DNA of 63,668 nucleotides, filler included, from Globobulimina sp. (GCA_003354225.1; 54 parts of 54 records of this genome joined end to end with filler, not necessarily neighbours in it), one strand, 5' to 3'. Shown: positions 11,731 to 57,763, numbered from the whole stretch's first letter. Translations and numbers: made by a program. The notes: generated by a model from the letters alone, not told the origin.

Positions 11731-11830
11731 NNNNNNNNNNNNNNNNNNNNNNNNNNNNNNNNNNNNNNNNNNNNTTAATTAATTAANNNNNNNNNNNNNN
11801 NNNNNNNNNNNNNNNNNNNNNNNNNNNNNN

Positions 11831-12437
11831 ATACATGTACTGTTCCGTTAATTTTGCAATCTGAAAACAAATTTGTTTTGATGTAAGGTCGCAAATAGTC
11901 AATAAATGCATGCGAGCCAGTAAAGTCTACACGGAATCCACCACAACGTTTAGCAAAATGAATACAACCATCACCATCAAAATAACCTCTTACAAAATGA
12001 TGTGCGTATTCATCAGGTAAATTAGCAGGCCATTGCAAAGTCAGAGATTTCCTTGGTGTACATCCCAGATTAATCAAATCTTGCCCCAATACATAATCAC
12101 GTATATTATGTCTACATGCACAATATGTCGATCGGCTATATTTATATAATCCTAAACAATATGTCGATTGTAATACACTTTTAAATTTAGCTACATGTGA
12201 ATAATCTGTGCATTTTAAAGTCAATGAGACAACATAAGACTGTTTGTTTTTGTGAACATTACCGTCAGCAAACAACAATCCTAACCAATAAGCCATTGTT
12301 GGATTCCATGACTTGAAAAATGATGAATCGCATATACAACGTCTTTTGGCGCCGAAGTTTCTGATTGATCTTTGATGAAGGGATGCACTGACCGGAAGTT
12401 TTAGATAACGCATTAAAGTGCTTACAACAAATACCAT
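11831..12437 (-). CDS. Double-motif LAGLIDADG (DOD) homing endonuclease with N-terminal presequence-like extension (3' partial)
   Basis: AYWLGLLFADG and HFVRGYFDGDG motifs, plus DLINLG.TPRKSL.LQWP..LP typical of free-standing bacterial/phage/intein-type LAGLIDADGs. Confidence 0.9.
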
Positions 12438-12913
12438 GGCAGACAACCTGCGGTTTGGTTCTTTGCCACATAAATTTGGACATGATATTGTGAAACCTAT
12501 AAGCGAATCATTTGTGGAAGCTAATACCTGGAAATATCTATGCCCAAATAAACAAGCACGTAATCAGTTAATCAATAATATTTATAAAAGACTGATAGAA
12601 AATAATATTAATATCAAATCAAAATCAAACTTATATGTTTTATTTGACATGGAAATGTATGATGATATATCATCAATTATCGGTTTTGTTGAAATTGTAT
12701 CACCACCAAATAAGAAATTGCAAATCAAAGATTGTTTATTCTCATACATTGACAATTTAGTTTTAGCTCCGCTTCATTTAAATGATGGAATATCATTTAT
12801 TTGGCGATGCATTAAATTAACATCAATTATTAACTATTCATTGCATGATATTATCACAAAGTACATCGGAGATTATTGGTTTTTAAATCATTTATGTATT
12901 AAAAACGACAAAA
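12436..12913 (+). CDS. Hypothetical protein (3' partial)
   Basis: ~160 aa open frame from ATG 12436, divergent to the endonuclease. Confidence 0.35.
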
Positions 12914-13013
12914 NNNNNNNNNNNNNNNNNNNNNNNNNNNNNNNNNNNNNNNNNNNNTTAATTAATTAANNNNNNNNNNNNNNNNNNNNNNNNNNNNNNN
13001 NNNNNNNNNNNNN

Positions 13014-15379: not shown

Positions 15380-16462
15380 GAGGAAAAAAGGGGTACACAA
15401 ATTATGCAAGCAGCAACAACACAAGCTATGTGCAGAGATATAGAGGACGCCTTAAACGAGACAGGGAGAAATGATATAATACAAGGTCGTTCACAACAGG
15501 AGGTGCGAGACGCTATTTACGAGAGCGCCAGAAATGGGAAAAGTGATAATGTTAGACAATGGGCTAAAAAGTATGCGAGCGGAAATACAGGGATGTTTAC
15601 AACAGAGCAATTAGCCAGAATTAGTAGTACAGAAATATTAAGGCACGGACAACTGCAAAGACAAGCAGACGCAAGCGAAAGAATAGAGTTATATAAACAA
15701 AGAGAACGAAATATGGTACCAGAAAATAGACGTAGAGAAAGGGATGATTATTATACTAGGCCAAGACAAGATAGATACCGACAGCCACCTAGGAGAACAA
15801 ATTATGATAGGGAAACGATAGCAGAGGAAACGGAGGAGGACGTAGATAGAACAACAGAGGATAATACAGAACAAAATCGTAGTCAAGTAAATTACGGTAA
15901 TGGAGCGAGAGGTGACCCAAAGAGGACAGTAAGAGTAACATGGGACGAAACGGAAAAGAGAGAAGGTGAAAGGTCACCAAGAAAGGAGGAAAGTGGCGCA
16001 GCAAGTAGTGCAAGCGCAGGTAAAGAGAAAGAAAGGGAGGAAACAGATTCTGAGGAGGAAAAGAAAGATTACAGTAGGAAAGAAAGAGACACAGAAAGAA
16101 GAGACGGAGACTACGATAGACGAGACAACAGAGGGTACGATAGGAGAGATAGAAGGGATTATGACCGTAACAGAGACAATAACAGAGACAGAAGATACAA
16201 CAATAGAGATGATAATTACGGTAGAGGCTATCAGGATGACTATTATAACAGATCTAATAGGGGCGGCGACCGTGGAAGAGGCGGTAGAGGCGGTAACTTT
16301 AGAGGCGGCCAAGGTAGAGGTGGAGGTAGAGGTGGAAGCACACCACCGGATATGGGAAAATGTTATACTTGTGGCGAGGAAGACCATAGAGCTAGGGAAT
16401 GCCCATATCGACAAATTGCAAGGGATGCAGCCGAAGCGGCAGTAAAAGAAGCAGGGCGAAAG
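15380..16462 (+). mobile_element. Gag-like protein of an LTR/DIRS-type retroelement with RGG tract and CCHC zinc knuckle
   Basis: CYTCGEEDHRAREC (CX2CX4HX4C); strongly purine-rich intronless frame, unlike host genes. Confidence 0.65.
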
Positions 16463-56682: not shown

Positions 56683-57763
56683 TCATTTGGACACCGATCA
56701 AAGACTCATTGTTTGCTCCGAAATGTATAGGCAAAGCGTAGAAGAAAAAGAGTTTTTAATCAATCAGGGCGAGGAAGGAAACTCCTTTTATGTGATTGAA
56801 AAGGGCGAATTTGAAATTACCGTACAAGATGTCGGTGTGGTTGATACCTTAGTAAGTGGCCGATGTGTGGGTGAATTGGCATTATTATACAATGCGCCTC
56901 GTGCCGCATCCGTGCAATGTACGTGTTCCGATGGCGGCGTTGTGTGGTGTGTAGACCGTGCGTCATTTCGTAAAGCATTGATGGAAGTACATACCAAATC
57001 GAGTGATGAGAATATAAAATTTCTAAAAAAATGTGAGTTATTACGATCATTATTATCGTCGGAATTACAATTAATTGATCAAGCATTAGAAGCAAGAAAT
57101 TATGCTGAAAATGATGTTATTTTCAAATTAGGAGACGAAGGAGATAGGTTTTATATTATTAAAAGTGGCACAGTGAGTGGTAAAGCCAAAGATGGTTCGT
57201 CGTTTAATTTATCTGTGGGTGGATTCTTCGGAGAGAGAGCATTATTAACAAAAGAGCCTCGTGCTGCAACCATACAATGTACATCCAAAACTGTAGAATG
57301 TTTGACATTGTCACGAGAAGATTTTACAACGTTATTAGGTCCGTTGGAAGATATTATGGAACGTAATTTGGAGGAATATGAGAAACCTGCCGAAGAAAGA
57401 AAACCTATGGGACATAACCAGCAAGCCGGTAATGAGCATATTTGCAAATTATCCCAATTTAAAACCGTTGGTATATTAGGTCGTGGTGCATTTGGTACAG
57501 TTAAATTAGTCACAGATCCGTCGACGAGCAAATCCTATGCACTTAAAGCAATCCGTAAGAATCAAGTGGTTGAGTTAGGACAGCAATCACATATTTTGAA
57601 TGAGAAGCGAGTAATGCAGATGTTGGATAATAAATTCTTAGTAAATTTAAAAGCAACCTACAAGGATGAACATCGCGTTTATTTCTTATTAGAGGTCTGT
57701 TTAGGCGGTGAATTGTTCACAATATTGCGGAAAATGAGATCTTTTGATGAGCCAACAGCTCGA
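56683..57763 (+). CDS. PKG: cGMP-dependent protein kinase (two cNMP-binding domains plus kinase N-lobe)
   Basis: GELALLYNAPRAAS, FGERALL..EPRAAT, LGRGAFGTV..YALK..HILNEK..LE.CLGGELF. Confidence 0.9.

Follow-up and report, generated by a model that had tools for sequence, protein, structure and literature searches.

A phage-type LAGLIDADG endonuclease gene with a presequence-like extension, from a putatively expanded foraminiferal family

The nuclease gene and its product

The window analysed here, a stretch of 63,668 bases from an assembly of Globobulimina sp. (GCA_003354225.1), carries a gene, P0001, that encodes a phage-type LAGLIDADG endonuclease preceded by a short arginine-rich extension. 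The window is a concatenation of 54 unrelated contigs of 1012–1083 bp each, ordered by length (1083, 1082, 1081 bp; one of 1012 bp) and joined by the same type of spacer between neighbours. Therefore, the true context of the nuclease gene is only the 1083-bp contig 11831–12913, on which it lies head to head with a second open reading frame (ORF), P0002 (Table 1). Any ORF or repeat that seems to span a spacer is an artefact of the joining.

Table 1. Features of the nuclease-bearing contig and of other parts of the window
Feature	Position	Strand	Remarks
LAGLIDADG_3 endonuclease ORF, P0001, 202 codons	11831..12437	-	3' end lost at contig edge
N-terminal extension, residues 1-33 (MVFVV...AKRR)	12339..12437	-	candidate mitochondrial presequence; predicted unstructured
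Conserved lead-in CICDSSFFKSWNPTM, residues 34-48	12294..12338	-	common to foraminiferal and phage relatives; inside folded core
LAGLIDADG motif 1 WLGLLFADG, residues 51-59	12261..12287	-	catalytic Asp58, end of helix 46-58
Inter-domain linker LGCTPRKSLTLQWP, residues 124-137	12027..12068	-	signature common to phage/bacterial LAGLIDADG_3 proteins
LAGLIDADG motif 2 VRGYFDGDG, residues 149-157	11967..11993	-	catalytic Asp156, end of helix 142-156
CATG palindrome holding both ATGs (minus 12437-12435, plus 12436-12438)	12435..12438		no intergenic spacer
Divergent neighbour ORF P0002, 159 codons	12436..12913	+	runs off contig; N-terminal part of small family
Full-contig ORF: Arg/Asp/Gly-rich low-complexity region, then CCHC zinc knuckle	15380-16462	+	zf-CCHC, E 1.8e-6
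Two cyclic-nucleotide-binding domains, then protein kinase domain	56684-57763	+	Pfam; cGMP/cAMP-dependent kinase architecture
Inter-contig linkers	e.g. 11731-11830, 12914-13013		N44-TTAATTAATTAA-N44

The frame of P0001 opens at an ATG (position 12437, minus strand) and is free of stop codons through 202 codons, up to the first base of the contig (11831). Since the full-length relatives have 300–342 residues, P0001 is 3'-truncated at the contig edge and about 100–140 final codons are missing. The gene itself is real: it has an intact frame, it encodes a phage-type LAGLIDADG_3 nuclease and it is cut only by the end of the contig. Indeed, its product matches the Pfam family LAGLIDADG_3 (PF14528) with 29.6 bits (E 8.6e-7), above the cut-off of 22.5, and, from residue 31 onwards, positions 91–255 of the 308 positions of the phage family phrog_4645, annotated as 'endonuclease' (E 5.8e-37). 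The approximately 90 N-terminal positions of this profile, which correspond to a helix-turn-helix (HTH) domain, have no counterpart in P0001. The first catalytic aspartate, D58, is kept in all 18 clade sequences compared (the clade is defined below) and the second, D156, in 17 of them, the sole exception being P0024, which carries an Asn. In the linker, C126, P128, K130, S131, L132, L134 and P137 are invariant or nearly so among 74 aligned homologs.

The initial annotation of the locus had described two LAGLIDADG helices with their acidic residues, a lead-in (FFKSWNPTMAY) and a linker of phage or bacterial type and a free-standing gene without intron or intein, all of which is borne out. Both catalytic residues are present in a domain that exceeds the Pfam cut-off, and the lead-in and linker recur in phage and bacterial relatives. 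The phage/bacterial type is further supported by the phrog_4645 match and by the relatives, clusters and tree described below. Lastly, a search of the 1083-bp contig against Rfam gave zero RNA families at E<=1, hence no intron RNA match, and the relatives show no fusion to Hint/intein or PPR domains.

An AlphaFold2 model of P0001, built with an alignment of 74 sequences, has a mean predicted local distance difference test score (pLDDT) of 87.6. Residues 1–17 and 19–24 score below 50, and the core, from about residue 31, scores 94–98. Domain 1 and most of domain 2 precede the contig end, the LAGLIDADG helices occupying residues 46–58 and 142–156. The model of a full-length Nonionella relative, P0004 (pLDDT 88.9, residues 1–22 unstructured), contains successively the double LAGLIDADG core, helices and a terminal beta-beta-alpha-alpha-beta unit. 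A Foldseek comparison of this second model with the PDB gave as best matches I-PanMI, I-AniI, I-SmaMI, I-Tsp061I, the bI3 maturase and I-OnuI variants (probability 1.00, E 7e-9 to 1e-7, template modelling score up to 0.60 on the target); a sequence-profile search of the PDB found no chain at E<=1. The predicted fold is thus the double alpha-beta-beta-alpha-beta-beta-alpha fold of single-chain LAGLIDADG proteins.

In the full-length foraminiferal relatives, the match to phrog_4645 spans positions ~87–305, likewise without the HTH, and is followed by about 100 residues that lie beyond the profile. This clade-specific C-terminal module is not on the contig of the window. A weak resemblance to the C-terminal tail with which phage HNH endonucleases bind DNA is seen in its last ~40 residues, as two of the four proteins scanned gave weak matches to phrog_20162, an HNH-endonuclease tail (E 6.7e-4 for P0005 and 3.2e-3 for P0003). 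Pfam detected nothing meaningful in the last 63 residues of P0004, and a NUMOD1-like nature of the module is thus unconfirmed.

Relatives and phylogenetic position

The best 120 of the 506 proteins found with E<=0.001 were examined. The top matches, 55–64% identical to P0001, come from EukProt, which provides 19 of these 120 proteins. The 17 that were looked up (P0007 and P0013 were left out) belong to proteomes derived from the transcriptomes of two foraminifera, ten of them to Bolivina argentea and seven to Nonionella stella. Seven ENA/Logan proteins are about as close as the foraminiferal ones. Among the matches listed, all the remaining ones show at most 47% identity (30–47%), originate from metagenomes or viral contigs and mostly carry an N-terminal HTH. 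At 90% identity, the foraminiferal proteins form at least 10 Bolivina and 7 Nonionella clusters, the paralogs being 50–60% identical to each other.

In an unrooted tree of 115 rows, computed by a quick method without the matches shorter than 180 residues, the neighbour-gene proteins P0002 and P0123 and the 110-residue fragment P0125, P0001 lies inside a clade of 20 rows with a Shimodaira–Hasegawa-like approximate likelihood ratio (SH-aLRT) support of 98. This clade comprises 12 foraminiferal rows, the seven ENA/Logan rows and the sequence of the window. Next outside it stand a divergent Nonionella protein, P0026, and a Logan protein with an N-terminal HTH, P0027. Beyond the clade, 93 relatives have a recognisable motif, of which 80 carry 47–125 residues before the lead-in (median 56, 10% acidic) and 13 have a short N-terminus.

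In both of the large metagenomic loci examined, the more distant relative is surrounded by phage genes for replication and recombination (Sak4-like, exonuclease VIII, DnaB-like helicase and HNH endonuclease), and the nearest Atlas clusters mostly belong to Uroviricota. A search for longer proteins returned 59 relatives, all with at most 45% identity and an HTH+LAGLIDADG_3 organisation, and none with a Hint/intein or PPR fusion; the full-length relatives are also devoid of any Hint domain. In IMG/VR, a scan with one foraminiferal protein found zero relatives and a scan with an alignment found at least 509 viral relatives, the best of which reaches 46% identity, on a par with the metagenomic ones. 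Indeed, the metagenome scan only found relatives with 30–47% identity, and the contigs of the close ENA/Logan proteins were not among them.

Further copies can be recognized in the sequencing runs that match the contig. Records 1 and 4 of run X1 and records 6 and 7 of run X2 are short pieces that are about 90% identical over the conserved parts of the nuclease and then diverge, which indicates further paralogs, judging from these sequences, both in this organism and in another one. In Bolivina argentea, the proteins of the pairs P0003/P0007 and P0010/P0013 share identical long N- or C-terminal stretches and differ by a central or N-terminal block. Such a mosaic structure of paralogs could result from gene conversion, alternative exons or chimeric transcript assembly.

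These comparisons make it quite probable that P0001 belongs to a family of phage-derived single-chain meganucleases that is nucleus-encoded, foraminifer-specific and expanded and whose active sites are intact.

The N-terminal extension

Matrix presequences are N-terminal extensions of 15–40 residues that are rich in arginine and hydroxylated residues and free of acidic ones, an amphipathic helix being a defining feature. The extension of P0001 includes seven basic residues (five Arg and two Lys) and no Asp or Glu. Tails are present in all ten clade sequences that extend beyond the lead-in CxSxFFxxW on its upstream side, with lengths of 12–33 residues and divergent sequences. Within this single family, Asp and Glu are absent from the 213 tail residues vs 8.1% in the mature parts (Fisher p 7.5e-8), and Arg reaches 14.6% vs 5.1% (p 7.7e-7). 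Lys does not differ significantly (6.1% vs 7.6%), so the Arg:Lys ratio is 31:13 in the tails vs 133:198 in the mature parts (p 1.7e-4), and Ser/Thr are somewhat more frequent (18.8% vs 13.3%, p 0.03). An acid-free stretch of 20 first residues is found in only one of 80 non-clade homologs. Spots similar to the RxF|G-like processing site put forward by the initial annotation are numerous in the Arg-rich tails.

An excess that is specific to arginine, in an AT-rich genome that favours lysine, and that affects an N-terminal, unstructured and fast-evolving segment is presequence-like. The composition of the tails thus strongly resembles that of presequences. Provided that the family is foraminifer-specific and phage-derived, the odds lean slightly towards a tail that targets the nuclease to mitochondria. 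MitoFates, TargetP and PredSL have been applied to the Bolivina and Nonionella proteins, according to the consulted part of a preprint (10.1101/2022.07.20.500910).

Genome compartment and alternative explanations

Taken together, these data suggest that P0001 is a 3'-truncated copy of a nucleus-encoded, expanded, foraminifer-restricted family of phage-derived meganucleases that would be imported into mitochondria, a reading to which we give a probability of about one half.

A gene encoded by the mitochondrion itself was considered and rejected. Published foraminiferal mitochondrial genomes, as described in the portions consulted, have 21.5–23.5% guanine plus cytosine (GC) and are annotated with code 4 (PMC13421374); they measure 22–50 kb, with between 6 and about 15 protein genes. 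By comparison with about 0.21–0.24 in these genomes, the GC content of the nuclease contig is 0.32. Furthermore, P0001 contains no stop codon when read with the standard code, uses TGG for Trp, has many paralogs and lies on a short, low-depth contig.

Several points weigh against a nuclear gene with a mitochondrial product. The ten tails come from one family and are not independent samples. In a test that is admittedly crude, the maximum hydrophobic moment (11-residue window, 100 degrees) did not exceed that of composition-preserving shuffles in any of the eight tails analysed (p 0.054–0.99). The available parts of two papers on foraminiferal mitochondrial genomes mention neither a group I intron nor a LAGLIDADG gene, leaving no obvious organellar intron partner; one such genome is reported to contain a partial GIY-YIG gene. 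The foraminiferal proteins derive from a study that used both polyA and total-RNA libraries, and none of the runs listed as matching the nuclease part of the contig is an RNA run. The contig that bridges the start region (see below) originates from a run that is probably the sample behind the assembly itself and would then not be independent. A multi-copy family with paralogs 50–60% identical is as compatible with a selfish element as with a domesticated gene. Finally, overlapping starts without a spacer are odd in a large nuclear genome and more usual in compact viral ones.

The alternative that survives best, though unlikely, is that the nuclease acts in the nucleus, either as a free-standing selfish gene that homes or as a domesticated cutter similar to HO, the tail being a nuclear localisation signal or an arm contacting DNA. 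The numerous divergent paralogs of each species, the paralog fragments in runs X1 and X2 and the intact catalytic residues would all be expected of such an element, and its position tight against the start codon of a host gene recalls free-standing phage endonuclease genes. Small basic clusters end several tails (KRR, RRK, PKK) and the lack of detectable amphipathicity also fits. However, enrichment in Arg without Lys, total absence of acidic residues, location at the extreme N-terminus and fast turnover are typical of presequences and not of localisation signals, and several tails (P0005, P0124, P0129) have no clustered basic motif.

A viral origin of the contig (giant virus, endogenous viral element or other dense mobile element associated with foraminifera) appears less probable still. 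Among 1.84 billion representatives, P0002 has only three true relatives and none that is prokaryotic: a Bolivina argentea protein, 72–73% identical, and two ENA proteins, 50% and 44% identical. The N-terminus is conserved in all of them and the start MADNLRFG is the same in P0002 and the Bolivina protein. A fourth match, to a repetitive protein, was disregarded. On sequence evidence, the nuclease gene is therefore in physical linkage with a gene for which the sole named relative comes from a foraminifer. This neighbour is a foraminifer-restricted gene with a sub-threshold resemblance to GNAT acetyltransferases, found in a member of the family of 298 residues (E 8e-4, 20.1 bits vs a cut-off of 27). 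A match of P0002 to Pox_G7 (E 0.002, 17.6 bits vs 27) also falls below the threshold and was taken as due to chance. As the two genes share a CATG and no spacer can hold a promoter, the 5' end of each mRNA must lie inside the coding region of the other gene. A scan for promoter and terminator consensus sequences found no more matches than in shuffled sequences. Two runs, X6 and X7, guessed to be RNA, cover only the neighbour part (12549–12913).

Divergent genes without an intergenic spacer, an AT-rich sequence and the weak Pox_G7 match all suit a virus, large DNA viruses commonly carry homing endonucleases as well as GNAT-like genes, and polyA selection would also pass viral mRNAs. Against this, neither IMG/VR scan revealed a close relative, the relatives of P0002 are three proteins including one from Bolivina, and a virus leaves the acid-free Arg-rich tail shared by the paralogs unexplained. 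Moreover, the GC content of the contig and the GC content at third codon positions of the nuclease ORF (0.25) lie inside the range of the window, whose other contigs look cellular. A Pfam scan of the longest frames of ten of them detected ordinary cellular domains on five, namely IMP dehydrogenase with CBS, an SMC hinge, a nicotinate phosphoribosyltransferase (NAPRTase), the kinase with two cyclic-nucleotide-binding domains and the CCHC zinc knuckle, and no match on the five others. The kinase of cGMP/cAMP-dependent architecture favours a eukaryotic source, and the assembly as a whole is eukaryote-like, AT-rich and heavily fragmented. The product of the full-contig ORF with a zinc knuckle could be a Gag-like protein of a retroelement or an RNA-binding protein.

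It is very unlikely that the extension lies outside the protein, either because translation starts later (M9 or M48) or because the first 33 codons result from misassembly with the neighbour gene. In favour of this, many EukProt models begin exactly at MAYWLG, the frame remains open for 43 more codons upstream of the ATG, within the coding region of the neighbour, and the assembly depth is low (3.5–5 for the Logan contigs). However, P0006, which starts at MAYWLG, falls into one 90%-identity cluster with the tailed P0124, which suggests that the short models are truncated. A start at M48 would remove the lead-in, which is conserved as far as the phage relatives and modelled with a pLDDT of 94, and a start at M9 would leave a 25-residue tail that is still acid-free and Arg-rich. 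The start junction is spanned by a 342-bp Logan contig of run X1, which matches 12183–12524 with 0 differences; the contig of run X2 ends at 12454, 16 bases from the CATG, so that X1 alone provides the bridge. Lastly, ten relatives carry similar tails.

Contamination of the assembly by a phage or bacterial contig is hardly credible: the nearest named families are indeed those of phages (phrog_4645 and mostly Uroviricota Atlas clusters), but the prokaryotic and viral relatives are at most 47% identical vs 55–64% for the foraminiferal ones, the clade is set off by a branch with a support of 98, 80 of the 93 non-clade relatives carry 47–125 residues before the lead-in where P0001 has only its acid-free 33-residue tail, and the relatives of the neighbour gene include a foraminiferal protein and none from prokaryotes.

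The initial annotation had proposed a horizontally acquired, domesticated, nucleus-encoded gene whose acid-free extension of about 35 residues was a mitochondrial presequence, unless this extension came from a chimeric junction, and had suggested a search of related protists for paralogs with similar extensions. This is borne out in part. Ten clade members carry acid-free, Arg-rich tails of the same character as that of P0001 (33 residues), the bridging contig and these relatives argue against a chimera, and the eukaryotic context is supported by the assembly and by the foraminiferal relative of the neighbour. A putative presequence is suggested by the composition of the ten tails and not by amphipathicity. 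The gene falls within a foraminifer-type eukaryotic clade. A single domestication is not demonstrated: with its multiple copies, the family could equally be a selfish element or an expanded toolkit.

Proposed mechanism and implications

According to the reading based on mitochondrial import, the family would descend from free-standing phage or bacterial HTH+LAGLIDADG_3 homing endonucleases. The phage HTH, absent from the eukaryotic clade, would have been replaced by the short, fast-evolving, acid-free and Arg-rich tail, acting as a presequence. The subsequent steps follow established LAGLIDADG biochemistry. After import and removal of the tail, the two LAGLIDADG helices would pack against each other, Asp58 and Asp156 would bind Mg2+ and the nuclease would cut a long asymmetric DNA site. 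In mitochondria, this cut would trigger recombination or repair of the mitochondrial DNA or, less likely, the protein would assist organellar RNA.

Foraminiferal mitochondrial genomes are described, in the consulted parts of the publications, as fast-evolving, with fragmented rRNA genes and a low coding density. A tentative and rather doubtful extension is that foraminifera possess a whole nucleus-encoded, expanded toolkit of imported, catalytically intact, phage-derived meganucleases, each with its own long target, which would cut or bind this unusual, repeat-rich, low-coding DNA. Such a toolkit might drive the recombination and rearrangement of mitochondrial DNA or process its transcripts, as a counterpart of the expansions of PPR, OPR and HPR proteins found elsewhere.

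If the mitochondrial reading is true, the family would add a new example of phage genes that were acquired by a protist and then retargeted, with multiple free-standing copies, intact catalytic residues and presequence-like tails. It would also offer a handle on the upkeep of foraminiferal mitochondrial genomes and provide novel single-chain scaffolds for meganucleases from nature. Should the family instead be selfish and act in the nucleus, it would illustrate the spread of free-standing homing endonuclease genes through a eukaryotic nucleus, which is rare.

Comparison with known systems

The literature searched on LAGLIDADG proteins (in foraminifera, nuclear-encoded mitochondrial ones, and phage-to-nucleus transfer) contained, among the papers listed, no account of such a foraminiferal family. 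To our knowledge, only a few relatives of homing endonucleases are encoded in the nucleus and act in organelles, and most of these, such as OTP51 and the nuclear maturases, are degenerate or fused.

The closest proteins in sequence are the phage and bacterial HTH+LAGLIDADG_3 endonucleases (phrog_4645, PF14528). Like P0001, they have a two-motif core with the signatures FFxxW...AYWLGxxxADG, LGCTPRKSLTLxFP and RGYFDGDG (30–47% identity, E to 1e-37) and are encoded by free-standing genes, which in their case lie among phage replication genes. Unlike them, P0001 lacks the HTH (median 56 residues, including acidic ones) and carries in its place a tail of a type that measures 12–33 residues in its clade and is acid-free and Arg-rich. 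Furthermore, the full-length members of this clade add a C-terminal module of about 100 residues; the source is eukaryotic and the clade is distinct.

In predicted structure, P0001 and its relatives share the pseudo-dimeric single-chain fold of I-AniI (1p8k/3eh8), I-PanMI (5esp), I-SmaMI, I-OnuI, I-Tsp061I (2dch) and the bI3 maturase (2ab5), although sequence identity with these monomeric meganucleases and maturases is only 10–19%. These proteins of the PDB are intron-encoded, within organellar or archaeal genes, whereas P0001 is free-standing and lies on a non-organellar contig.

Yeast HO is a nucleus-encoded, domesticated LAGLIDADG nuclease that has retained cleavage; it is of intein descent and its action is confined to a single nuclear locus. 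Unlike HO, the family described here has no Hint remnant, is multi-copy and carries a presequence-like tail. The nearest precedent found for a nucleus-encoded, LAGLIDADG-derived protein acting in an organelle is OTP51 of Arabidopsis, a PPR protein with two LAGLIDADG motifs that, according to the part of the source consulted, is needed for the splicing of the plastid ycf3 intron 2 (PMC8393795). However, OTP51 is fused to PPR and acts on plastid RNA, whereas the proteins of the foraminiferal family are unfused, keep both catalytic aspartates, belong to a phage-type lineage and exist in multiple copies.

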